Origin: Squalus acanthias
Lineage: Eukaryota
Assembly (NCBI GenBank): GCA_030390025.1
Contig: CM059431.1
Span: 128,776,001 to 128,840,000, forward strand
Direction: 5' to 3'
DNA length: 64,000 nt
Positions 8,050 through 42,051 of this stretch are shown piece by piece (positions within the stretch are counted from its first letter, which is position 1; every line of letters starts with the position of its first letter). The notes beneath the pieces are model-generated. The model was given only the letters and a program-made list of their open reading frames with translations. It made no database searches and was not told the DNA's origin. A program made the translations under genes and the position numbers.

Positions 8050-8595
8050 CCATTCCCTTTTCCCCTTTACCTGCCTCTTCTTACCAGTTGATTTGGGGTA
8101 GACAAAATCTCCAATGATTATTATTCTAGATCTTTTACTCATTTCATAGCTTTGCTTACATATTTTTTCCTCCACCTCTCTTCCACTATTATCTAGTCTG
8201 TGGAATACCTCTATTAGCGTGATCAATCCCTTCTTATCTTTTATCTCAACCCGTATGGATTCTGTTTCTATTGTACTGTTAGTTACATTGCTTTTTTCTA
8301 CTGCCATTATGTTATCTGTAATTAGTACAGCTACTCCACTCTCCCTCCTTCCTTCCCTATCCTTTCCAAATATGTTCTAACCTGCAATATTTAATGGCCA
8401 GGACTGTTCTTTCTTTAGCCATGTTTCAGTTATCCCAACTAGATCTGGTTCCTCGCTATGTATTATTGCCTCCAGTTCCCCCATTTTATTTCGGACGCTG
8501 TGCACATTGCTGTACAGGCAATTTAATTCATTTTTATTAGTCGTTCCTCTCACTTTATTTTTAACAGTCTTTTTATACTTCTGTTCTATAACTGT
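8050..8595 (-). mobile_element. CR1 APE endonuclease fragment (target of the LTR element)
   Basis: CLYSNVHSVRNKMGELE, DLVGITETWL, ESIRVEI, IIIGDF.YP. Confidence 0.85.
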
Positions 8596-8745
8596 TGTAA
8601 AATTCGCAATTATCGCGATTCGAAATAACGAGACAAAGCAGATTCGTTTCACCAGCTTTATTTCAACGAAATGCTGTCATGATTAAACAGAAATGAGAAG
8701 TCGCACAACACCAGGCTATAGTCCAACAGATTTATTTAATTTTAC

Positions 8746-8776
8746 AAGCTTTCGGAGCTGTCGCTCCTTCTTCAGG
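8746..8776 (-). ncRNA. Minimal hammerhead ribozyme motif (inverted pLTR copy)
   Basis: Reverse complement reads CCTGAAGA-A-GGAGC-GACA-GCTCC-GAAA-GCTT. Confidence 0.75.
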
Positions 8777-8946
8777 TAGGGTAGCTGTGAGAGAATCTCC
8801 CAGAATTCACAATATAAACACAGAAAAAATGTATTCAAATCAAAATCAAATCAAAACAACGCAACGCCATCCACGCTCTCAAGACCAACCGCAACATCGT
8901 CATCAAACCAGCGGACAAAGGAGGAGCCATCGTTATACAGAACAGA

Positions 8947-10706
8947 ATGGACTATTGCAAAGAAGCATACCGACAACTGGACAACCAGGAACACTACAGA
9001 CAGCTACCCGCAGATCCGACCAAAGAACACACCCGCCAACTCAATAGACTGATCAAGACCTTCGATCCAGACCTTCAAAACATCCTACGCGCTCTCATCC
9101 CACGTACTCCCCGCGTAGGAGACTTTTACTGCCTCCCAAAGATACACAAAGCCAACACACCCAGACGTCCTATCGTATCAGGCAACGGAACCCTGTGTGA
9201 GAACCTCTCTGGGTACGTCGAGGGCATCCTGAAACCCATCGTACAGGGAACCCCCAGCTTCTGTCGCGACACTACAGACTTCTTGCAGAAACTCAGCACC
9301 CATGGACCAGTTGAACCAGGAACACTCCTCGTCACGATGGACGTATCGGCACTCTACACCAATATCCCCCACAATGACGGCATCGCTGCGACAGCCTCAG
9401 TACTCAACACCAACAACAGCCAATCTCCGGATGCCATCCTACAACTCATCCGCTTCATCCTTGACCACAATGTCTTCACCTTCGACAACCATTTTTTTAC
9501 CCAAACACACGGAACAGCCATGGGGACCAAATTCGCACCCCAATACGCCAACATCTTCATGCACAAGTTCGAGCAAGACTTCTTCGCTGCACGGGACCTC
9601 CAAACAACGCTGTACACCAGATACATCGACGACATCTTCTTCCTTTGGACCCATGGCGAAGGATCACTGAAAGGACTACACGATAGCATCAACAGGTTCC
9701 ATCCCACCATCAAACTCACCATGGAGTACTCCTCAGAATTGGTTTCATTCTTGGACACACGAATCTCCATCAAAGACGGACGCCTCAGCACTTCACTCTA
9801 CCGCAAGCCCACGGACAACCTCACGATGCTCCACTTCTCCAGCTTCCACCCTAACCACGTTAAAGAAGCCATCCCCTATGGACAAGCCCTGCGAATACAC
9901 AGGATCTGCTCAGACGAGGAGGAACGCGATGGACACCTACGGACACTGAAAGACGCCCTCGTAAGAACGGGATATGACGCTCGACTCGTCGATCGACAGT
10001 TCCGACGGGCCACAGCGAAAAACCGCATAGACCTCCTCAGAAGACGAACACGGGACACAACCAACAGAGTACCCTACGTCGTCCAGTACTTCCCCGGAGC
10101 GGAAAAACTACGCCATGTTCTTCGCAGCCTTCAACATGTCATCGATGACGACGAACACCTTGCTAAGGCCATCCCCATGCCTCCACTACTCGCCTTCAAG
10201 CAGCCGCCTAACCTCAAAAGTACCATCGTTCGCAGCAGATTACCCATCTTTCAGGAGAACAGCAACCACGACACCACACAACCCTGCCACGGCAACCTCT
10301 GCAAGACATGCCAGATCATGGACACAGATACCATCATCACACGTGAGGACACTACCCACCAGGTACATGGTACATACTCATGTGACTCGGCCAACATTGT
10401 CTACCTGATACGTTGCAGTAAAGGATGCGCCAGAGCATGGTACATCGGCGAGACCATGCAGACACTGAGACAACGTATGAACGGACACCGCGCAACAATC
10501 GCCAGGCAGGAGGGTTGCCTCCCAGTCGGGGAACACTTCAGCAGTCAGGGGCATTCAACCTCGGATCTGCGGGTAAGCGTTCTCCAAGGCGGCCTTCAGA
10601 TACACGACAGCGCAAAATCATAGAGCAGAAACTGATAGCCAAGTTCCGCACTCATGAGGATGGCCTCAATCGCGATATCGGGTTCATGTCACGATACAGA
10701 ACGTGA
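8947..10706 (+). pseudogene. Penelope RT + GIY-YIG endonuclease ORF (5'-truncated, one frameshift near 10600)
   Basis: Upstream in-frame IKPADKGG; LPKIHK, RPIVS, MDVSALYTNIP, GTAMG, RYIDD, FLD; C-terminal CxxC, IVYLIRC..WYIGET, GLN. Confidence 0.95.
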
Positions 10707-10938
10707 CTTGACATCATGGCCGGTCTTTCCAGGTTTTTTTTAAAAAAAACTAACACAAGAACCAACACAAATGGAGAGGATATGCAGCCAGCAGGTGTTT
10801 TGACACGTTGGACCCCCTGGGACACATCTCATTGTCTTGGCTGTGCTCTTAGTGTGTCTTTGATGTAGGGAAAGATTTGAATACATTTTTTCTGTGTTTA
10901 TATTGTAAATTCTGGGAGATTCTCTCACAGCTACCCTA

Positions 10939-10969
10939 CCTGAAGAAGGAGCGACAGCTCCGAAAGCTT
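10939..10969 (+). ncRNA. Minimal hammerhead ribozyme motif in Penelope pLTR
   Basis: CUGANGA core (10940-10946), stem II GGAGC/GCTCC, GAAA core, palindromic AAGCTT in place of stem III. Confidence 0.8.
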
Positions 10970-11971
10970 GTAAAATTAAATAAATCTGTTGGACTATAAC
11001 CTGGTGTTGTGCGACTTCTCATTGTTGTCCACCCCAGTCCAATGCCGGCATCTCCACATCATGATTAAACAGGACACAGAAGCCTGTAAAATGGCCGCCG
11101 CGCCTCGTGGCAGAAGCTTCCAGAATTTTCAGTGGGCAGACAAGATGGCGTTCGAATAAACATTTCAGTATAAGATTGGATAATACGCAGCAAACACTGA
11201 TAAAGACAGGATGCAACCTGTCTGCATTCGACACAATAGCAAAGATATAAGTGCTGGAATCATTTTCCATGCACAAGTAAGGACCATTGTACTGGGCAAT
11301 CGAAGGCCCATCCAGATACATCAATACGCAAATTCCCCACGGCTCTACAATGAGAGAGCCATTCTCGGGTGATTAAGTCAGTATTCGAGGAGGCCCCAAA
11401 ACCAGTCAGGGAGACTCCTAGCCGGTTCGACAATGGGGAAAACATTAATGGATAGTTGGCCAGTTTAAGGTGCTACCGAAATCCATTAAAGGAAAGAATC
11501 GCCCCATGCTGGGAGTTTTGTGCACCAGTATTACACAAAGGACAAACATCAAGATTTGAGCGGGAGATAAGGGAACACAGCATTATAACTATAGTGAACA
11601 AATGTCCATCGCTCTCTTGACTGTTTTATCTCGCTGATGACTGCTGAACTTTTATTCTCCTATTCTGATCCTCGGGTATCGCTCTGCTGGACGAGCTGCT
11701 TTCTGTTTTTCTCTGGACTCTGTTGACTATGTTGGGTGGAGCTCGAACGGAACGAGCCGCCTCGACGAAGGCCAGTGACCGGGTGCACCATCCCGAGAGT
11801 CGGTAAACTTTGTCTGGACCCGAAGAGACGAGACGAGATGAGACGAGAAGAAGAGGAGAAGAATCCACGTACCGCCACGGTCAGTAAACCCCGACCGCGC
11901 CCGAAAATACAAGAAAGAACTGCAGCGAAACGAGCCGAGTGCCTCGTTTAAAATTCTCCGAAGTATCACGA

Positions 11972-11980
11972 GTGGTGAGC
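11972..11980 (+). promoter_or_regulatory. Candidate major splice donor inside the LTR (GTG|GTGAGC)
   Basis: Consensus-like donor between the TATA-like box (about 11584) and AATAAA (12186); the same motif is present in the solo LTR. Confidence 0.5.
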
Positions 11981-12185
11981 ATGTTTCCCGATTCTACAAA
12001 TCTAGATTAGTGTAGGTATTGATAGGGGAGGGTGGTTTTATTAAGGATAAATATAATGTGTTCCCCTTTTTACGATGTGCCGTGCGTTCCTCATTACCCT
12101 AGACCAAGTTTTATGAATGTATGTATACTTGTACTGTCATTAATTTGTGCCTATGACATGTACTTCATGATTTTGGACGTTATGC

Positions 12186-12191
12186 AATAAA
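12186..12191 (+). terminator. LTR polyadenylation signal AATAAA (copy at 19581-19586)
   Basis: Canonical hexamer about 235 nt before the LTR end, followed by GT/T-rich sequence. Confidence 0.65.
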
Positions 12192-12428
12192 GATTTCCAT
12201 TTCGTACTATTCAACTGGGTCTAGTTGAGTTTTTCTCTGCATTACTGCTCTCGCACCTAAGTCCAGTGTTAGAACCGTAAGGGCGAGTGGGTCGAACCAC
12301 TCACAGGTGCTTATTGCAACAAGGCTGGCCGGAGACCAGAGCAAGCAATAGTATTAGGCAACGAAGGCCTAACCCCGCACCAGCACCGGCTGCGATACAA
12401 GCACCGACGACCGAACCCCTTACAGAAA

Positions 12429-14228
12429 ATGGCGACCACGAAGGGACATTGGCAGCGAGAGAGTAATGTTTTAGACCCTGGTGTGAATAGGCGAAATGTG
12501 ATGGATGAGAGGGTAGCCGACTATGTGTTTGGGAAGGTCAACTTGACCAAAAGGTGGATAAGTGACCTACTGATGGATAAGCGTCCGCTAGACGCAGCCA
12601 TCAAATGGACAGACAGCAAAGAGCATAAGAAGTCAGTAGAGAAAGCGGTCTGGCTGATGTGCTACAAGAAGCAAGTCCAACTTTCGGACCAGGTCATTGT
12701 AGCACAGGCAGCTCAGATCAGGGATTTGGAAGTTGAGATGGAGGAAAAGGTCACGGGAGGACAGAAACTCATCGCATTCTTGAGCGCGTTACATCAGGAA
12801 CGCCAGATAGTAGCCAACCACCATGAGGCTAAAATAGATTACCTAGAGTGTCAGGTCACGGAAGCGAAGTTAAACGAGGGTAGGATTAAAGAACGGTGTG
12901 CCCGCCTAGCTAACCAGATAAGAGCCCAAGAAGAAAGCTTGAAGGGAGTTAGGGCGGCATATAAGATGGCCCTCGAAGATAAGCATGAGGGAGTCGACCA
13001 CAGTGTTTGCCAGAAGGAGATAGGGAACCTAAGAGAGGCCCTGAATAAGGCAAACGGCATGGTGTGCCTAATCAGCCCGTCAGCTCAACAGCCACAGGTG
13101 GGTAGGGAATTCCCAAAATCCCTACCAGACAAAGCAGAGGAGGTATTTGCCACTGCACCCTCCGCGCCACCCAGCTATTCGGCAACCTGGGTAAGGGAGG
13201 AAGTGGTGGAAATAGAAGAGGAGGTCCCTGAGGTAGGACAATCCCCAGAGGTAGTGTCGAAGCCGGGACCGTTGTGTCCGCTGACAGGTCACAAGAGGGG
13301 CCCGAACGGAGCCAATGGGGAGAACGGGGATGTCCTGAACCAGCTTGTGTTGCCTCACAGCTCACACCAGCTGAGAGCAATGATTAGTCATGTACGGAAG
13401 CTGTCTGAGTCAGACGACCCTTCCGTACACTTCAGGGAGGTAGAACAGACCGCAGCAATTAATGGCTGCGACGATGCGGAAAAGACTAAAATGTTGCTGT
13501 TCTCGTTAGATAGCTCGATCCTTCAGTGTCTCTCAGACGAGAGCAAGAGGGGAAATAATACCTATGAGGAGTTAAGGGACGAGGTCCTAGAAGTGTTGGG
13601 GGCGGATGACGAAGGTCCGTTCGTTAGATTGGGTCAGACAGTTGAGATGGAGGGAGAACCCCCGAAGGTTTTCGCCGACAGGCTGTGGCCAGTATACCAG
13701 CGTAGCTGCCCAGGTGCGCCAGCGCGCCACCACCTGGACGGTGCTGGTTTAACTCATTGGCTCAGGTGTTTAGTAGCCAACAGTTTGCCAGCCGTCAGGG
13801 AGCAGGCCAAAGCGTGGTTTGATCCCACTAACCCCGCCACAACAGAGGAGTCGGTCCTAAATCGACTCACCATAGGGTATCGGAACACTAGGAGCACGGG
13901 AGCGCGTCCCCTTAAGGGAAAGGTGCATGAGGCACGGCCCGCAGCCCCGGCTCAAAAGGAGTGGCATCAGGAGGGAAACCGCGCCCCACAGGCCAGTGGT
14001 GCTTGTTACGGGTGCGGAAAGATAGGTCACTGGTATAAAAACTGCAGGAATCCCTGGAAGGATTCCAGGGAAAAAGCTCCCGCAGTCCGAACCCAAGCGC
14101 CTGTCTCTGAGAAAGGAGCTGGTGTGCCTATCCATCCCGATGCGATAGAATCAATGTTAGGAGCCATGCGGTCTCTTATGATTTCGCACGGGGAGGTAGC
14201 AACAGCCCCATACAACCCAGACTTCTGA
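12429..14228 (+). CDS. gag: Gag-like polyprotein: long coiled coil, PSAP-like motif, capsid-like region, CCHC zinc knuckle
   Basis: Uninterrupted 599-aa ORF right after the PBS (true start may be ATG 12501); CYGCGKIGHWYKNC knuckle; PSAPPSY late-domain-like motif. Confidence 0.88.
   Translation: MATTKGHWQRESNVLDPGVNRRNVMDERVADYVFGKVNLTKRWISDLLMDKRPLDAAIKWTDSKEHKKSVEKAVWLMCYKKQVQLSDQVIVAQAAQIRDLEVEMEEKVTGGQKLIAFLSALHQERQIVANHHEAKIDYLECQVTEAKLNEGRIKERCARLANQIRAQEESLKGVRAAYKMALEDKHEGVDHSVCQKEIGNLREALNKANGMVCLISPSAQQPQVGREFPKSLPDKAEEVFATAPSAPPSYSATWVREEVVEIEEEVPEVGQSPEVVSKPGPLCPLTGHKRGPNGANGENGDVLNQLVLPHSSHQLRAMISHVRKLSESDDPSVHFREVEQTAAINGCDDAEKTKMLLFSLDSSILQCLSDESKRGNNTYEELRDEVLEVLGADDEGPFVRLGQTVEMEGEPPKVFADRLWPVYQRSCPGAPARHHLDGAGLTHWLRCLVANSLPAVREQAKAWFDPTNPATTEESVLNRLTIGYRNTRSTGARPLKGKVHEARPAAPAQKEWHQEGNRAPQASGACYGCGKIGHWYKNCRNPWKDSREKAPAVRTQAPVSEKGAGVPIHPDAIESMLGAMRSLMISHGEVATAPYNPDF
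12430..12447 (+). other. Primer binding site complementary to tRNA-Arg 3' end
   Basis: TGGCGACCACGAAGGGAC is the reverse complement of ...GTCCCTTCGTGGTCG-CCA (vertebrate tRNA-Arg(TCG)-type 3' end, from recall); lies 5 nt downstream of the LTR. Confidence 0.85.
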
Positions 14229-15307
14229 CTGGAACCGGTGCAGCCTGCCTACCTGTGTCCCCTTGAAAGACGCGCACAGGAGGGGGTCTCCTGTAAGGAG
14301 GCCAGGTTAAAAGAGCAGGCCTTACGGGAGGAGAACGCCCGTTTAATGGGGAAAGTAGACGGGCTGGAATGGCAGCTTAGAGACATAAAAGCAGCCTACA
14401 GGGTAGCCAGGAGCAGGGAGTATGAGGATTTAAAACAAAATAGAAATCTGCAGCCTCCAGCAGGCGAGATTTCACAGAATGCACAAGCAGGGGCGGTGGC
14501 CTGTCTTAGGGGAGGGGCCAGCCCTGCGAGTGGGGACTCTCAGCCCCAAGCAGGACAGCAGGGCACACAAACCGGTAAAGCAGCCTGCTTGAGGGGAGAG
14601 GACATTCTAGGAAAGTGTAAATCTTTTCTTGGGGTTGGGATTCCGATGAGGAAGAGCTCGAGGAGCTCGACCAAGATAGTGACCCGATCGGAGAGGTGCT
14701 GAGATCGGAGGACGAAAGGTTCGTCCTCGACTCAAGCTTAGGGGAGATAGGGATTGCGAGTGGAGATCCACACAGGGTGGAATCAGAAACTGCAGGTCCC
14801 GAGCCCAGGGGGGCAGAGCTAGGGGAGACGGAGCCAGCGGCTGTGGTAGGACCACAGGTCGTGACGGTGGAAGTCTCGGAACCCGGTCCGTCAGCCTTGG
14901 AAGCCTTGCCCTTGGGGGAGGTAGGGATTGCGAGTGGAGGACCACATACTGGGCCAAGTAGGGTGGTACCAGAAACTGCAAATCCCGAGTTCAGGGAGGT
15001 GGAGCCAGGGGAGACGGAGCCAGCGGCTGTGGTGGGACCACAGGCCGCAACGGTGGAAGTCTCGGTACCCGGTCCGTCGGCCCTGGAAATCTTGCCCAAT
15101 GTAGCCCTCCGTAGGTCAAGTCGGACACCCCAGCCCAGGAAGTCATGGTCAAGTCCCCCGTACACCCCCAGGCGTAAGTTCAAGGTCAAGGCAGCCCAGG
15201 GAGATCCCAGTCCCAGCGCAGCAGCGACAGGCTGCGGCAGATCAAAGGAAGGGGTCAGTGCCCTCCCACCGTTGGGAAAAGCTTGTGGCAGCCTTCGCAG
15301 AATTTAG
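14229..15307 (+). pseudogene. Unknown ORF in pol position: Gag-like coiled coil, acidic tandem repeat and basic tail (probable single frameshift near 14630)
   Basis: In frame with gag after TGA. EARLKEQALREENARL..IKAAYRVA resembles Gag EAKLNEGRIKERCARL..VRAAYKMA. No PR, RT, RNase H or IN motifs. Confidence 0.55.
14738..15097 (+). repeat. Two-copy tandem duplication (about 175-185 bp unit)
   Basis: LGE.GIASG.PH...ETA.PE.R..E.GETEPAAVVGPQ..TVEVS.PGPSALE.LP occurs twice. Confidence 0.9.
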
Positions 15308-15592
15308 GTAGGCCACCCTGGGAAAGGGCGGCGCTGTACAGTTTATAAGTTTAGGATAAGGATAAGTTTATAAGTTTAAGTTATAGTTTTATAAGTTTGG
15401 TAAGATTGTAGTTTAATTTTAAAAGTAAGTGGTAAAATGATGGGAGTCAGAGATAGGAATAGTTAAAGTCTATCCAGCATACATGTCGTTATATGTGAGA
15501 CGAGGTCAAGGGACCCGCTCACCCTTCACAAAAGCCAGAGACTCTTGGGAGGCTGGCTACATCATTTTATCTGATCACAGGAACCACGAAAG

Positions 15593-17944
15593 ATGGAACG
15601 GATTCTGCTAGTGCTCGCAGCGATCGGATATGGATTGGCCTATCGGGGCCTTACCAAGGATGTTGTTGTGTTTGGTTGCTCCGGGGACACGGCCCCCATC
15701 ACGACGGATGGGACCGGGAAGCGAAAGGCTGAGGAGACCGCCACCTATTTCCACAAGGGAAGGTGGCCGGGATGGCTGGGAACGAATTCAACGGAATACT
15801 CTAGTGCATCGGGATTTGCCTACAAAGAGACTTCTTTACTGTGCCCCAGAGTGAGGATCATTGCACCCAGAATCAGCGTCACTGTCGGCAAAAGGATTTG
15901 TTTGACATGCAATGGGAAGGTCCCATTGAGCCGATGGTGGTGGTTACGGAAATTGAGCAAGAATATGAGAAATTCCTCGGTCGAGTGGGAGCGGTTGGGT
16001 AACAATACCCATCGGACAATTACGGGGACTAACTGACAATTGAAAGTCTGTTGGGACAAATGGTGGGAACCGGATGAGGGAATATATGTTTGTATGTGGG
16101 GATCGAAGTACGTTTGCACCAAGGGTATATCCATATTTTTCGTAAACCAGTAGCAGGATAACGGGAAAGGGATGAGGTGGGATGTCAGCACCAGGGGGTG
16201 CGGAGCTCCATACTCCCTGATCCCGGTAAACGCCACTGAACTCATCACGCGCCCACGCAAGGCCCCGCCCACGATTCCGGTGGTTTTGGCTCAGGAGGAA
16301 GGGTGCCCTAAAACCACTAAGGGGCCCGGGAATGGTTTGGTATTGGTCCCAACAGACCAGATACTATTTCAGGGGGTACATTACGCGGTGGCCTCGGTGA
16401 TTTTAAATCTCACCAAGGTGCGGTTGCCAGAGTGGTGCCCCAAAGCAACGGAACAATTGTACCAGGTCCTGTTGACAAACATGTTCAGACAATTCTACGA
16501 GTTTGATTTTGCAGAAATTGACAAGACAAGCTTGTACACCACACCACACGAAGTTTTGGGTCAGGTGCGGAGACAAAGGAGGGGCATTGTGAACGATATG
16601 TTCACCGCCTTTAATATAGGAACATCTGTGGTCAACGCTCTAGACAACGTGGAGCTGCAGACCCAGATCAATGGTTTAAAAACACAATTAAAAAGCATCC
16701 TCACAAGAGAAAACAAGGTAGTAGGGTCTGAGTTACAGGAGGACCAGGCCATGACGCTACACTTAAAGGAAATTATAGCAGAGCTGGAGAAGCATGCGAG
16801 AACGGTAAATGCCCTGATTACGGAAGATCGGAATGCATCCGATCAAGCTGCGCAGAACGAGGTGTGCGTACTATACGGGGCGTGGTTACTGGGCGAGGGC
16901 CGCAGTAATTTGGAGGATTTAAAACAAGGTTTGGTCCCATCCTGGATAAGTAACAAACACCTGCAGGCGCTCCACCCTTTTCAGAACGCATTAAGCCCGT
17001 GCCAGCTCAGGCTAGCCTCAGAGGCATACCCAGTCCCCGTGGACTGCGGACGGTCAAACCATACCATCATGGGTATAGTATTACGTATGCCGGTTTTGGG
17101 CGACACAGCAAAGCCTGCCCCGGTGTATCGGGTAGAGAACATTGGTGTCATTCAGGGGGGAGCCCACATTCGCTACGCAGCGGTCCCACCTTACGTCATC
17201 CGCTGGGAGCAAACGATGACAGGTACCAATCTCTCGGGTTGTCGTGGCCGGGGAGCACACATAATCCTGTGTCCCTGGCACTTGAATGCCTTCTTAACAC
17301 CACAATGTGGGTTCAGAACGGCTGGCGCCAAGCCCATGAATTGCACCATGGAGGCAATGACACAAGATCATGTGCCTCCGCAGGTGGCATACATAGGGGG
17401 TGGAACATATTGCGTTACCACTGCAGCGCAACACTACCAGCATGGAAACCGCAGCCGGTGTCCGGTGAGTGACAGCAGTTTCTGTTTTAAACCCAGGGCT
17501 GAAGTTCAAGTGGCACAGCAGCGAATTGTCCCGATCCCTGAACCATCCACTGTTCATCTAACAGTAAAAGAGAATTTCACCGACTTCCAGCGATTCGTCG
17601 CACATTTCGGATACATCATTCCCCCTCTCCCTGAACACCTCACCAAGCTTTTGAAAGCAGTCGCGGTATCGCAAAAACATTTTTACACCCTAGAACAAAA
17701 GACTGTCGAGATAGGGACAGAAATTCTAGACATAGTAATCCCACCGTGGTGGGACGTGTTCACCAATATTGAAGTGCCTTCATGGATCAGAATAGCCTCC
17801 CACATTTTAGTTGTGTGCCAAGTAATAATTGTAGTGTACCTATTGGTCGTGCACTGCAAGAGAGGCAAGTGCCTCACAAAGCAGGAGAACACAGGAGAGT
17901 GGAGAGAACGTTACGTGCGCGTGCACGAGGAAAGCGCCGCGTAA
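15593..17944 (+). pseudogene. env: Envelope glycoprotein: signal peptide, Ig-like domain, class I F-like fusion protein, TM; two in-frame stops (16034 TGA, 16151 TAG)
   Basis: ORFs 15593 and 16172 share a frame. Signal MERILLVLAAIGYGLA; C..W..DEGIYVC; furin site RRQRR/GIVN; heptad repeat; Cys-rich region; TM ILVVCQVIIVVYLLVV; splice acceptor at 15580. Confidence 0.85.
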
Positions 17945-18355
17945 ACGGCCAGGATGACGCCGCTCCATTTTACCATGTGTGTTCTTGTAATTGAAGATAT
18001 GTAACCAAGTTGGGAACTTTGTATTTTAAAAGAGTTGTTTTTGATTATTTTTAACTTTTGTATTTTTAAAATGGTTGTTTGATTATTTTTTTTCCTTGCA
18101 TAATAAAATACATATACAGGTGGTGCGAGAGGCATCGGCCTCTTGCACCTGGAAGACGTATATGCGATGTAAGTTTAAAAGGCAATACTGCCTACGGTTT
18201 TGTCCAAGTTAGATAATGTAATTTTTCCCTGGGAAATGAGGACGGCATGGAGACCCTAGATAGTTTAAGTTAAGGGAGTGTTTGGATGTGGAGAATCGGG
18301 ATAATTTTGCTCACCACCACTTTTAATTGATACGATAAGCGGAGTTATTCGCATC

Positions 18356-18367
18356 AACAGGAGGGAC
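18356..18367 (+). other. Polypurine tract
   Basis: AACAGGAGGGAC immediately before the TG of the 3' LTR. Confidence 0.75.
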
Positions 18368-19819
18368 TGCAAAATTCGCAATTATCGCGATTCGAAATAA
18401 CGAGACAAAGCAGATTCGTTTCACCAGCTTTATTTGAACGAAATGCTGTCATGATTAAACAGGACACAGAAGCCTGTAAAATGGCCGCCGCGCCTCGTGG
18501 CAGAAGCTTCCAGAATTTTCAGTGTGCAGACAAGATGGTGTTCGAATAAACATTTCAGTATAAGATTGGATAATATGCAGCAAACACTGATAAAGACAGG
18601 ATGCAACCTGTCTGCATTCGACACAATAGCAAAGATATAAGTGCTGGAATCATTTTCCATGCACAAGTAAGGACCATTGTAATGGGCCATCGAAGGCCCA
18701 TCCAGATACATCAATACGCAAATTCCCCACGGCTCTACAATGAGAGAGCCATTCTCGGGTGATTAAGTCAGTATTCGAGGAGGCCCCAAAACCAGTCAGG
18801 GAGACTCCTAGCCTTTTTGACAATGGGGAAAACATTAACGGATAGTTGGCCAGTTTAAGGTGCTACCGAAACCCATTAAAGGAAAGAATCGCCCCATGCT
18901 GGGAGTTTTGTGCACCAGTATTACACAAAGGACAAATATCAAGATTTGAGCGGGAGATAAGGGAACACAGCACTATAACTATAGTGAACAAATGTCCATC
19001 ACTCTCTTGACTGTTTTATCTCGCTGATGACTGCTGAACTTTTATTCTCCTATTCTGATCCTCGGGTATCGCTCTGCTGGACGAGCTGCTTTCTGTTTTT
19101 CTCTGGACTCTGTTGACTATGTTGGGTGGAGCTCGAACGGAACGAGCCGCCTCGACGAAGGCCAGTGACCGGGTGCACCATCCCGAGAGTCGATAAACGG
19201 TGTCTGGACCCGAAGGCCCGAAGAGACGAGACGAGATGAGACGAGAAGAAGAGGAGAAGAATCCACGTACCGCCACGGTCAGTAAACCCCGACCGCGCCC
19301 GAAAATACAAGAAAGAACTGCAGCGAAACGAGCCGAGTGCCTCGTTTAAAATTCTCCGAAGTATCACGAGTGGTGAGCATGTTTCCCGAATCTACAAATC
19401 TAGAGTGTAGGTATTGATAGGGGAGGGTGGTTTTATTAAGGATAAATATAATGTGTTCCCCTTTTTACGATGTGCCGTGCGTTCCTCATTACCCTAGACC
19501 AAGTTTTATGAATGTATGTATACTTGTACTGTCATGAATTTGTGCCTATGACATGTACTTCATGATTTTGGACGTTATGCAATAAAGATTTCCATTTCGT
19601 ACTATTCAACCGGGTCTATTTGAGTTTTTCTCTGCATTACTGCTCTCGCACCTAAGTCCAGTGTTAGAACCGTAAGGGCGAGTGGGTCGAACCACTCACA
19701 GGTGCTTATTGCAACAAGGCTGGCCGGAGACCAGAGCAAGCAATAGCATTAGGCAACGAAGGCCTAACCCCACACCAGCACCGTCTGCGATACAAGCACC
19801 GACGCCCGAACCCCTTACA
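18368..19819 (+). repeat. 3' LTR (1452 bp)
   Basis: TGCAAAATTCG...CCCCTTACA followed by TSD CTGT. Confidence 0.95.
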
Positions 19820-19879
19820 CTGTATTTGTTTCTGACTGTTCATGTTATCGTTTTTCTTTACCTTGGTCTGACCTTATAA

Positions 19880-35463: not shown

Positions 35464-38400
35464 GGGCGCGATCTTACCAGCCCTGGGGAGGCGGGTTTGG
35501 AGGCGGGACTGCTGGGAAAATGGCAGAATCTGGGGGCGGGTACCCATCCCGCCCCCAACCCGCCTCCGTGCCATCTTGCCAGGAGGTGGGTAGCCGACCC
35601 GCGCCGGGTCCCGTCTCCTGGAGGCGGGAAGGGGATTACAGCCACTTAACGGCCTGTTAACAGATAGTTACCAGGCAGTTAAGAGGATTCAATTAGAGGG
35701 TGAGAAGGTTGGATCTCAAACAAGCGTGCTAAGCTTGAATAAAGGAGACTATGAAGGTATGCGAGCGGAATTGAGTAGAGTGGATTGGGAAAATAGATTA
35801 AAGGGTAAGACGACACATGATCAGTGGTGTACATTCAAGGAGTTATTTTACAACTTCCAAAAAAAATATATTCCACTGAAAAGAAAAGGGTGTAAAAGAA
35901 AGGACAGTCATCCGTGGCTAAGTAAAGAAATTAAGGATAGTATTCGACTAAAAACAAAGGCATATAAGGTAGCGAAATCTAGTGGGAGGACAGAGGATTG
36001 GGAAAACTTTAAAAGGCAGCAAAAAATAACAAAAAGATTGATTAAGAAAGGGAAGATAGATTATGAAAGTAAATTAGCAAAAAATATAAAAACAGATAGT
36101 AAGAGTTTTTATAGTTATATAAAAAGAAAAAGGGTGGCTAAAGTAAATGTTGGTCCCTTAGAGGATGAGACCGGGAAATTAATGGTGGGAAATATGGAGA
36201 TGGCAAAAACACTGAATGAATATTTTGTATCAGTCTTTACAGTAGAGGACACTAAGAATATCCCAACACTGGACAAACAGGGGGCTATAGGGGGAGAGGA
36301 GCTAAACACGATCAAAATCACTAAGGAAGTGGTACTCGGTAAAATAATGGGACTCAAGGCGGATAAATCACCTGGACCTGATGGCTTACATCCGAGAGTC
36401 TTGAAGGAAGTGGCGGTAGGGATTGTAGATGCATTGGTAATAATTTTTCAAAACTCCCTGGATTCCGCTAAGGTCCCGGCAGACTGGAAAACTGCTAATG
36501 TAACACCCTTATTTAAAAAGGGCAGTAGACAGAAGGCTGGTAACTATAGACCGGTTAGCCTAACATCTGTGGTAGGTAAAATTTTGGAGTCCATTATTAA
36601 GGAAACAGTAACAGGACATTTGGATAATCATAATTTAATAGGACAAAGTCAGCATGGTTTTACGAAGGGGAAGTCATGTTTGACAAATTTGCTGGAGTTC
36701 TTTGAGGAAGTAACATATAGAGTGGATAAAGGGGAACCAGTGGACGTAGTGTATTTAGACTTCCAAAAGGCATTTGACAAGGTGCCACACAAAAGATTAT
36801 TGCTTAAGGTAAAAAATCACGGGATTGGGGGTAATATTCTGGCATGGATAGAGGATTGGCTATCTAACAGAAAGCAAAGAGTTGGGATAAATGGTTCATT
36901 CTCAGACTGGCAATCAGTAACTAGTGGTGTTCCACAGGGGTCAGTGCTGGGTCCCCAACTCTTCACAATCTATATTAACGATTTGGAGGAAGGGACCAAG
37001 TGTAACATATCAAAATTTGCAAATGATACAAAGATGGGAGGGAAAGTAGTGAGTGAGGAGGACATAAAAAACCTGCAAGGGGACATAGACAGGCTAAGTA
37101 AGTGGGCAGAGATTTGGCAGATGGAATACAACACTGGAAAGTGTGAGGTGATGCACTTTGGCAGGAAAAATCCTAGAGCAATTTATTATCTTAATGGCAA
37201 GAAACTGGAGAGTACTGAAGTGCAAAGGGATCTGGGGGTCCTGGTGCACGAAACTCAAAAGGTTAGTATGCAGGTGCAGCAAGTGATTAAGAAAGCAAAT
37301 GGAATGTTGGCTTTCATTGCTAGGGGGATAGAATATAAAAATAGGGAGGTATTGCTTCAGTTGTACAAGGTATTGGTGAGACCGCACCTGGAATACTGCA
37401 TACAGTTTTGGTGTCCTTACTTAAGGAAAGACATCCTTGCTCTCGAGGCAGTGCAAAAAAGGTTCACTCGGTTAATCCCGGGGATGAGGGGGTGGTCATA
37501 TGAGGAGAGGTTGGGTAGATTGGGACTCTACTCATTGGAGTTCAGAAGAATGAGAGGCGATCTTATTGAAACATATAAGATTGTGAAGGGGTTGGATCGG
37601 GTGGATGCGGGGAGGATGTTCCCGATGACGGGTGAGACGAGAACTAGGGGACATAGTCTTAGAATAAGGGGCTGCTCTTTCAAAACTGAGATGAGGAGGA
37701 ACTACTTCACTCAGAGGGTGGTAGGTCCATGGAATATGCTGCCACAAAAAGCTGTAGAAGCTACAACATTAATTAAATTTAAAACAGAAATAGACAGTTT
37801 CCTAGAAGTAAAGGGCATTAAGGGTTACGGGGAGCGGGCAGGAATTTGGACATGAGTCTAGGTTCGGATCGGTCATGGCCCTGTGGGTAGTGGAGCGGGC
37901 CCAGGGACTGTGTAGCCTGATTCTGCTCCTATTTCGTGTGTGCAATTCTGTTAGAGGCAGGAGATGGTTCTGTGATAGATAGTAGATTGGCGGTTAGGAT
38001 CAGATCAGCCATGATCTTATTGAATGGCGGAGCAGGCTCGAGGGGCCGATTGGCCTACTCCTGCTCCTATTTCTTATGTTCTTATGTTCTTATGTTCTTA
38101 TTCTCTCCATTTTTCCAACAGAGACGCGGGCTTCCCAACGTCGGGAAACCCCGCCAGGGACACCGAGGCGAGCAGTGAGTCTGCGGGGTCCAAAAGTGCA
38201 CTGTGAAGGTAAGTGATGTGGAGAGCTAAGTATGTGAGGTGAGTGGAAAGTGATAGAAAATGTTTACTTACCTTTGTTTCTTCCTGCAGGCTTCAACAGT
38301 TGGGGATGCAGCGAGTCTCGCATCTCACCGGCCGAAATGACAGATGGCTGCTGCATTCTCCGATGCAACAACCATCTAATTTCTACAAAAGAAAGAGGTT

Positions 38401-40084: not shown

Positions 40085-42051
40085 ATAGAGTGGTGATATT
40101 GGGGGACTTTAATTACCCAAATATCGATTGGGATAATGTTAGGGTAAAGGGAAAGAATGGGAAGAAATTTCTGAAATGTGTGCAGGAGAATTTCCTTGAC
40201 CAGTATGTTCTTGGGCCAACTAGGAAGGAGGCATTGCTGGATCTGGTGCTGGGGAATGAGGTGGGCGAGGTCGACCAAGTGTCTGTGGGAGAACACTTGG
40301 GAATGAGTGATCATCGTATCATAAGATTAAGATTAGCAATGGAGAGGAGCAAGAAACAGTCTAGAGTGGAACTTCTAAACTGGAATAGGGCTAATTTCAA
40401 TGGGATGCGAAAAAATCTATCCAGGGTAAAATGGAACCAAAGACTGACAGGAAAAACTGTAACGGAACAATGGGAGATCTTTAAGGAGGAGATGTTCCAA
40501 GTACAGGCTAGGTAGATTCCAACAAGAGGGAAGGGTAAGGGAACCAAAGCAAGGGCTCCTTGGATGACGAGGGAGATAGAGAATATGATGAAATAAAAAA
40601 AGAGGGTGCATGATGCTTGTCAGGTGAATTCTTCAAGGGAGATCTAGACCAAATACAATAAGTTGAGAGGGGAAGTGAAGATGAAAATAAGATTGGCAAA
40701 GAGAGAATATGAGAGTAGAATGGCGGTTTACATAAAAGGGAACCCAAAAATCTTCTACCGGCATGTAAACAGTTAGCGGGTAGTAAGAGGCGGGGTGGGG
40801 CCTATTAGGGATAAAGAAGGTGATATATGCTTAGAGGCGCAGGGAAAGGCTAGAATACTCAATGAGTACTTTGTATCGGTGTTTACTAAGGAGGTGGATG
40901 CTGACAAAATATCGGTAGAAGTGGAAAAGGTAGAAGCAATGGAAGGGGTGAAAATTGATAGACAGGATGTACTAGAAAGGCTGGGTATGCTTAGAGTGGA
41001 TAAGTCGCCTGGTCCAGATGGCTTGCATCCCAGATTGCTAAGGGAATTGGGGGAGGAGATAGCAGAAGGGCTTGCCATAATTTTCCAATCTTCCCTAGAT
41101 GTGGGGGAGGTGCCTGAGGATTGGAAAGTTGCAAATGTGATACCATTGTTCAAGAAAGGGTGTAAGGACAATGCTAGTAACTACAGGCTGGTCAGTTTAA
41201 CATCAGTGGTGGGTAAAGTTTTAGAAACAATAATCAAGGAAAAAATTAACGGGCACTTGGAGAGGTTTAAGCTAATTAAGGAGAGCCAACACGGATTTGT
41301 AAAAGGCAGATCATATTTGACTAATCTAATTGAATTTTTTGATGAAGTAACAGGGAGGATTGATGAAGGGAATGCAATGGATGTTGTCTGCATGGATTGT
41401 CGGAAGGTGTTTGATAAAGTACCACATAGAAGGCTGGCTAACAAAATTGAGGCTCATGGAATAGGTGGGTCAGTGGCAGCTTGGATAAAGAATTGGCTTA
41501 AGGACAGAAAACAGCGAGTTGTGGTAAATGGCTGTTTTTCAGACTGGAGGATGGTAGACAGTGGTGTTCCCCAAGGGTCAGTGCTGAGGCCACTGCTTTT
41601 TTTGATATATATAAATGACCTGGATATTGGAATACAGAGTAGAATTTCTAAATTTGCCGATAACACCAAACTTGGGGGTATGGCAAACAGTGAGGATGAT
41701 ACCAATCGACTGCAACAGGACACAGAAAGGCTAGCAGAATGGGCAGACAAGTGGCAGATGGAATTTAATACAGAGAAGTGTGAGGTGATGTATTTTGGCA
41801 GAAGGAACAGGGAGAGGCAATATACACTTAATGCAGCGAGTGGTGAGGACCTGGAACTCGCTGCCGATAGAAGTGGTGGAAGCGGAGACACTCAATGTTT
41901 TCAAGGGGAGACTGGGTAGGCACTTGAGGGAAATAAACTTGCAGGACTACGGGGATAGAGCGGGGGAATGGGACTGACTGGAATGCTCTACAGAGAGCCA
42001 GCATGGTCTCGATGGGCCGAATGGCCTCCTTCTGTGCTGTTATGACTCTAT

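Follow-up and report, generated by a model that had tools for sequence, protein, structure and literature searches.

A broken env gene with a predicted F-type fusion core and a likely immunoglobulin-like head in a young, pol-less LTR element of Squalus acanthias

A 64,000-nucleotide stretch of Squalus acanthias DNA (the window) contains an env gene interrupted by two stop codons. We consider it probable that this is the broken env of a young LTR element that has gag and env and no pol, that the core of its product is, as predicted, a fusogen of the F type (class Ib), and that the unbroken protein likely carried an Ig-like receptor-binding head. An earlier note on the same DNA had described an open portion of the gene as a fusogen of the paramyxovirus/pneumovirus F type.

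A young LTR element with gag and env

The LTR element spans positions 8596-19819 of the window, and its LTRs end in TG...CA; all features of the element described below are on the plus strand. The element is flanked by a 4-bp target duplication (8592-8595 / 19820-19823). The 5' LTR (8596..12424) was delimited by its ends, by the target duplication and by comparison with the 3' LTR, and it is split by a later insertion. The 3' LTR (18368..19819; 1452 bp), also delimited by LTR comparison, has a purine-rich tract just before it. The two LTRs differ by 26 mismatches over 1444 sites, and with this K2P divergence of 1.8% the element is young.

The insertion in the 5' LTR is a Penelope-like retroelement (8691..11058) with inverted ends and an RT ORF at 8818-10623 (PF00078, E 5e-9), and it is flanked by a 14-bp duplication (8677-8690 / 11059-11072). 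Its C-terminus appeared by eye to be GIY-YIG-like, and the Penelope label is likewise a reading by eye. Since this retroelement, with an open RT frame of 601 aa, sits inside the 5' LTR, it must be younger than the young LTR element that received it. Elsewhere in the window we noted a DDE_Tnp_4 transposase ORF on the minus strand (1432-2355), and two LINE-type RT ORFs (35594-37855 and 40777-41919), all of them ordinary repeats.

A primer-binding site (12430..12447) begins 5 nt after the 5' LTR and is exactly complementary to a tRNA 3' end, which we presume to be that of the host tRNA-Arg(UCG). The one match to the site in the tRNA scan was a phage tRNA-Asp gene, which does not identify the host primer. 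The gag frame (12273..14228; first ATG at 12429) is open. It encodes a single CCHC knuckle, matches a retroviral nucleocapsid profile (E 4e-5) and is 59% identical to a ray protein; comparison of Gag with phages gave no match. By eye, the N-terminal half of Gag is coiled-coil-like and its middle is capsid-like. The primer-binding site starts within the first in-frame ATG of gag (12425-12447), and the ray Gag opens with the same nine residues.

The interval between gag and env (14229..15592) comprises 1364 nt and holds low-complexity ORFs, a repeat with a spacing of 186 bp and no pol. RT, RNase H, protease and integrase families were all absent from the three ORFs of at least 150 aa in this interval. 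As no pol family lies between gag and env, this copy is non-autonomous. One of the ORFs (14621-15307) encodes 228 acidic, Pro/Gly-rich residues, contains a 62-codon repeat and has no match in Pfam. Its end resembles what we take to be the basic tail with which many pol genes end, and the ORF may presumably be a pol remnant. In the frame directly after the gag stop (14229-14450) we also noticed, by eye, a stretch resembling the coiled-coil region of Gag itself.

Contigs of four sequencing runs from two organisms covered the element in 30 of 30 bins in every run (4/4) and contained 750 variant places; their depth gives no copy number. Such complete coverage, combined with so many variant places, indicates a multi-copy family. 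In the contig rows listed, neither joints nor loose ends gave a sign of a copy with pol. The family may spread by complementation, with RT and integrase lent by a helper. The accessible text of PMC10435555 gives complementation in trans as a known possibility, and the retention of env by a pol-less element points to spread via complemented particles.

The env reading frame and its fusion core

The open frame described in the earlier note, from ATG 16172 to the stop at 17944, does encode 590 aa and lies within a 596-codon stop-to-stop frame that begins at 16154. What that reading overlooked was the front of the gene. The env frame begins at ATG 15593, in the same frame as the 590-aa portion, so that this portion is open but the whole env, with its signal and head, is not. 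The gene is broken at two places, 16034-16036 and 16151-16153. Each of these is an in-frame stop, which excludes a frameshift near 16036 as the cause of the break. Two ray proteins, which are 75% identical to the front part of env, read through both stop places. At 16034-16036 the contigs of 4/4 runs carry another reading, and this stop is therefore private to this copy or to a minor lineage; the stop at 16151-16153 was not among the variant places listed (40 of the 750). Because the two stops sever the signal and the head from the rest, the open 590 aa are a headless remnant.

The start of env encodes a predicted signal peptide (15593..15640), whose best 9-residue KD value is 3.09 as against 1.06 behind ATG 16172. 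It is followed by a first part of the head (15641..15853; about 70 aa), conserved in the ray proteins P0005 and P0007, and by a likely Ig V/I-type domain (15854..16150), which is interrupted by the stop at 16034-16036. Beyond the second stop (16151..16153), placed by reading the frame, a Pro/Thr-rich linker (16154..16303) was modelled with low confidence (pLDDT <50 for residues 1-45). The F2-like part of the N-subunit (16304..16582) comes next and ends in the furin site RRQRR (16568-16582), exactly where the earlier note had placed its end.

The model, its fold matches, the heptads and the conserved cysteines all delimit an F1-like ectodomain at 16583..17731. This comprises a putative fusion peptide (16583-16648), helices after it (to 16924), a Cys-rich beta core (17021-17527) and a second heptad (17633-17731). 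Most of what had been noticed in this subunit was borne out. Its length after cleavage, given as about 450 aa, is 453 aa. In the heptad repeats, 67-82% of the a/d positions are hydrophobic compared with 24-28% elsewhere (three segments, best register chosen). In the Cys-rich region, cysteines 238, 363, 373, 385, 397, 420, 436 and 444 are retained in 75-86% of the aligned relatives covering them (C238 in 22/26 and C397 in 25/29). A transmembrane helix (17780-17854), placed by hydropathy and by the model, forms the one strong TM peak (KD 2.64) and is followed by a 29-aa tail and the stop (17780..17944 in all). The fusion-peptide-like stretch is indeed present after the furin site, but its hydrophobicity is no more than moderate (KD 0.83 across the first 19 residues). 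A motif search of the open frame found neither the LQNR-like immunosuppressive pattern nor CX6CC, again as the note had it. Thus, compared with a gamma-type (syncytin-like) Env, the protein has no ISD, no CX6CC and a C-subunit of 453 aa instead of a short TM subunit.

We modelled the open frame as a monomer with AlphaFold from a 37-row alignment (mean pLDDT 71, pTM 0.53); the fusion peptide region had a pLDDT <50. The predicted model of the core has an F-like fold with nested domains I-III, and the order of class Ib is present: furin site, moderately hydrophobic fusion peptide, HRA, HRB and TM. Foldseek, a check that the earlier note had proposed, returned hPIV3 F as the best PDB match (E 1.1e-11), and 37/37 among the matches listed were F proteins of paramyxoviruses or pneumoviruses. 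The TM-scores of these matches were low (0.21-0.36) and the rmsd high, which may stem from a monomer model that lies between conformations. In a wide structural search (VIA), 14 F and 2 foamy virus Env chains made up the top 16 (Z 11.5-5.8), with 335 residues aligned to NDV F; rows 17 onward were short coiled coils with Z 5.5 or less. A best match to an orthoretroviral TM, named beforehand as the contrary outcome, did not occur, the sole such row being a 55-residue helix (Z 5.0) among generic coiled coils.

Atlas, a language-model search, gave PF00523 as its top cluster (score 0.94, 209/256 features) and had errantivirus/Baculo_F clusters at ranks 3 and 5. In a library of predicted viral structures the best matches were lispivirus-type and baculovirus F, with paramyxovirus F from rank 12 and the Envs of walleye epidermal hyperplasia virus, walleye dermal sarcoma virus and feline foamy virus at ranks 22, 42 and 45. 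Since lispivirus-type and baculovirus F outrank them in this library, all at 8-15% identity, the special tie to paramyxoviruses and pneumoviruses that the note had drawn was not upheld. Sequence searches gave no PF00523 or Baculo_F match for the window protein, nor for 37/37 aligned members at E 0.05; one relative weakly matches Baculo_F (PF12259, E 0.0011). The PDB sequence search with the open part found no match, and the 37-row profile reached E 0.09 or worse against PDB, with no F protein. On the strength of the model, we predict that the core is an F-type (class Ib) fusogen and not a gamma-type TM. The opposition to an SU/TM env in the note has to be dropped all the same: the open frame belongs to the env of an LTR element, and an F fold has been published for retroviral Envs (PMC11468914 and PMC7947760, in their accessible parts).

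The open portion had also been put forward as raw material for co-option by the host. This portion has neither signal peptide nor head, and at this age it would stay open by chance about half the time; past or ongoing co-option of the 590-aa part is, in our judgement, highly improbable. The one observation in its favour is that 596 codons are open, yet the 187 codons in front of them carry two stops, where 0.26 would be expected at 0.9% divergence. Counting point mutations alone, however, the open part would escape stops with a probability of 0.52 at 0.9% divergence (the change per LTR) and of 0.28 at 1.8%, and gag has stayed open as well. Further, there is no signal-like stretch behind ATG 16172, and the element is young and still has both LTRs and gag. 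Codon positions 1-2 account for 8/15 env differences from the run contigs, a weak indication drawn from the 40/750 variant places listed. Set beside a syncytin-type gene, this one has its signal cut off by two stops and retains its proviral context. A remnant without signal peptide that had roughly a 50% chance of staying open does not support co-option. We conclude that this copy is dead for Env and very probably not co-opted.

The head domain in the window and in relatives

The head region at 15854-16150 contains a cysteine at 15908, a tryptophan cluster around 15938 and a D-x-G-x-Y-x-C motif ending with the cysteine at 16091. The Cys-Trp-DxGxYxC spacing is 64 residues, which is canonical for the Ig V/I-set. 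With phmmer, 19/20 PDB matches were Ig V domains aligned to the same stretch of the head (E 0.17-1.2), a result to be read in the light of the over-representation of antibodies in PDB; in the PDB sequence search the head aligned to light chains. A profile of five head rows, picked by eye for the Ig pattern, yielded Ig-superfamily chains in 60/60 of the matches listed; the best single-domain value was that of NCAM2 (E 1.4e-4), and shark VNAR was among the matches (E 3.6e-4). Atlas assigned the ray copy of the head to Ig families (0.91-0.92), and Pfam returned Ig_3 at E 0.1. An AlphaFold model of the head from a 3-row alignment had a mean pLDDT of 34.9. Each of these lines is individually weak; the fold of the head is nevertheless very likely that of Ig, as predicted.

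A representative search retrieved 44 relatives of the Env. Thirty of them were looked up, and the named ones come from sharks, rays, frogs and the coelacanth; the named proteins nearest to those of the element are from a sawshark and a ray (59-77% identity), which points to a cartilaginous-fish host. Viral and metagenome contigs searched with Env and Gag contained no relatives. Several relatives are automatic gene models that may be mis-joined. P0006, a chimeric gene model, was excluded from the comparison of heads, for which the start of F2 was placed by pattern in 11 relatives and by eye in P0031. Host gene models hold env pieces in three cases (P0006, P0014 and P0037, annotated as Niban 1-like, cadherin-related 5-like and fbxo15); these pieces may be exonised ERV sequence or mere errors of annotation.

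The window Env and two ray proteins share a 230-aa Ig head, and in the ray relatives head and core are contiguous. Ig-like heads were also found in one bamboo-shark protein and in two frog proteins, and P0034 (cluster mate P0051) has a V-set-like head that is without the first cysteine (E 0.045). The window head bears a weak resemblance to the other Ig-like heads (z -0.8 to 3.3). The shark proteins P0015, P0024 and P0031 have a Cys-rich head instead, with z values of 20-53 among themselves and of -0.4 to 0.5 against the window head. P0035 and P0046 have no head. To judge by these two headless sequences, the head is apparently not required in the wider family. One of the relatives, P0045 from the frog Mantella aurantiaca, stands for a cluster of 16 members on many contigs, of which 12 of the 15 listed are 677 aa long; this frog family was amplified recently, and its proteins combine an F core with an Ig-like head.

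We computed a tree of the F core from 13 rows, with a midpoint root, no outgroup and two long branches. The clade of the window Env and the Cys-rich-head clade are sisters in this tree (100/100), and P0034 forms a pair with the headless P0035 (98/98). The sister clade of P0015, P0024 and P0031 has a Cys-rich domain (about 130 aa) where the window clade has its Ig head. Since head types vary within supported clades of the F core, heads have been gained, lost or swapped more than once. A change of head type within supported clades fits a receptor-binding module, as expected.

By analogy with F proteins and foamy virus Env, the signal peptide of an unbroken copy would route the Env into the ER, and the protein would form trimers. 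Furin would cut it into an N-subunit (head, linker and F2) and a C-subunit (fusion peptide, HRA, beta core, HRB and TM) that would stay joined in domain III by an F2-F1 disulfide, likely Cys95-Cys238 of the open frame. The head would bind to a receptor on the cell, after which the C-subunit would refold into a six-helix bundle. F proteins normally depend on a second protein for attachment; the element encodes none, which makes the head the likeliest attachment module. The accessible text of PMC11468914 describes that the F scaffold accepts receptor-binding modules at its N-terminus or between its subunits, and the capture of a host IgV domain as RBD by a gamma-type Env provides a precedent (10.1101/2024.03.17.585361, available part).

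The head might instead be an immune decoy or shield that mimics a host Ig-superfamily receptor and leaves attachment to the F core or to glycans, a reading that we find doubtful. Headless relatives exist (P0035 and P0046), and published lokiretrovirus Envs start their F2 motif right after the signal peptide (by eye), from which it appears that the core can work alone. The position of the head, on a flexible linker at the N-terminus of an F scaffold, nevertheless agrees with known sites of RBDs (PMC11468914, accessible text), and at this very place unrelated head types substitute for each other.

Lineage and comparison with known systems

As to the lineage of the element, we see it as an even call whether it is related to SnRV (class III-like) or another basal retrovirus with an F-type Env, like those of foamy and walleye viruses. 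In favour of this placement, a retroviral-type RNase H (PF00075, E 4e-5) and an env piece 52% identical to the present one occur together in one gene model of the whale shark, although this model may be chimeric and its RNase H reached E 0.5-0.9 against PDB (MLV), which is too weak for placement. The foamy and walleye virus Envs among the fold matches and the CCHC knuckle of Gag point the same way. Most RTs of cartilaginous-fish ERVs belong to clade III, as stated in the accessible text of PMC11089739, but the element has no RT of its own.

We think it unlikely that the element is instead a lokiretrovirus, of a kind so far missed in cartilaginous fish. By eye, the Env shares with published Loki Envs the GP-x-x-G motif that opens F2, along with several motifs of the core, and Gag is similar to the Gags of Loki and Bhikhari in its capsid-like motif and its N-terminal coiled coil; pol-less Loki families are known as well. 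The relation of the Env to Mononegavirales F, seen in the predicted fold, is shared with other lineages and so is not diagnostic. On the other hand, 0/3 chondrichthyan genomes screened had lokiretroviruses (PMC7947760, accessible text), the visible parts of three Loki Gags have no CCHC knuckle, the fusion peptides of Loki Envs are more hydrophobic, and the Xenopus relatives found here differ from the published Loki-Xtr/Xla Env. An errantivirus-like, env-bearing Ty3/gypsy element is improbable. This element has a target duplication of 4 bp and a spacer ahead of its primer-binding site, both typical of gypsy elements, and errantivirus/Baculo_F clusters stand at Atlas ranks 3 and 5. The RNase H joined to a relative is, however, of the retroviral type, and a systematic survey reports, in its accessible text, no intact vertebrate homologues of invertebrate errantiviruses (10.1101/2023.10.26.564294).

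F-type Envs on retroelements have already been published (PMC7947760, PMC11468914 and 10.1101/2023.10.26.564294, in the parts accessible), and such an Env is in itself ordinary; what matters is the added head. Our search of the openly accessible literature found no paper describing an Ig-headed F-type Env. We tentatively propose, though we lean slightly against it ourselves, that the element represents an undescribed, recently active retroviral lineage of cartilaginous fish and frogs. Its F-type Env would be a plug-in platform on which host-derived Ig domains (possibly captured repeatedly), an unrelated Cys-rich domain or nothing at all occupy one N-terminal site and set receptor use. If this is true, the family is a living model of a bare F core acquiring an attachment head, a step that others have proposed in the emergence of the coronavirus spike and of foamy virus Env. 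The proposed modular model of class Ib, with receptor-binding modules on a minimal F scaffold, would extend to a family that allows direct comparison of forms with an Ig head, with a Cys-rich head and with no head. Where screens for syncytin-like Envs in sharks demand an ISD and CX6CC, as in the available part of 10.64898/2026.05.06.723177, they miss the whole class.

Among known systems, the lokiretrovirus Env of Wang and Han (PMC7947760, in the text available) is likewise encoded by LTR elements of aquatic vertebrates. It shares the signal, an R-x-x-R site, a fusion peptide, a coiled coil and a TM, together with F similarity at the level of PF00523 and, by eye, GP-x-x-G at the start of F2. 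In its readable starts, F2 follows directly on the signal, whereas here the two are separated by about 220 aa that include an Ig-like domain; the present element further differs from lokiretroviruses in having no pol and a Gag with CCHC. Foamy virus Env gp130 (PDB 8RM0/8RM1; VIA Z 8.4 and 8.3) also combines an F scaffold with a built-in receptor-binding module, according to the accessible part of PMC11468914. The foamy RBD, however, has a fold of its own, sits between F2 and the furin site and goes with an N-terminal membrane-anchored leader, whereas our Ig-like module is N-terminal to F2 (PMC11468914, same part). The F proteins of paramyxoviruses and pneumoviruses (hPIV3 1ZTM, NDV 3MAW, RSV and hMPV) share the predicted domain order and fold over residues 58-505. 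They differ in having a separate attachment protein and no N-terminal head, and their identity to the core is 7-15%.

The F-type Env of errantiviruses (Chary and Hayashi, 10.1101/2023.10.26.564294), here considered together with baculovirus F, is another F-type Env on an LTR retroelement, as far as the accessible text goes. Its hosts are invertebrates, and the main text of that paper, in the part available, is without the words 'immunoglobulin' and 'receptor'. The SIRP-like IgV RBD on an alpharetrovirus-like Env (Hotzel, 10.1101/2024.03.17.585361, accessible part) resembles our case in its N-terminal IgV on a retroviral Env and in the transfer of RBDs between Envs. There, the Env is gamma-type and mammalian and the host donor is clear, whereas here the core is F-type and the hosts are fish and frogs. 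Finally, Bhikhari of zebrafish (Bik-1/2; 10.1101/2024.03.25.586437, available text) is likewise an LTR family that is young, multi-copy and non-autonomous and has a coiled-coil Gag; Bik-2 lacks pol and env alike, whereas the present element retains env.
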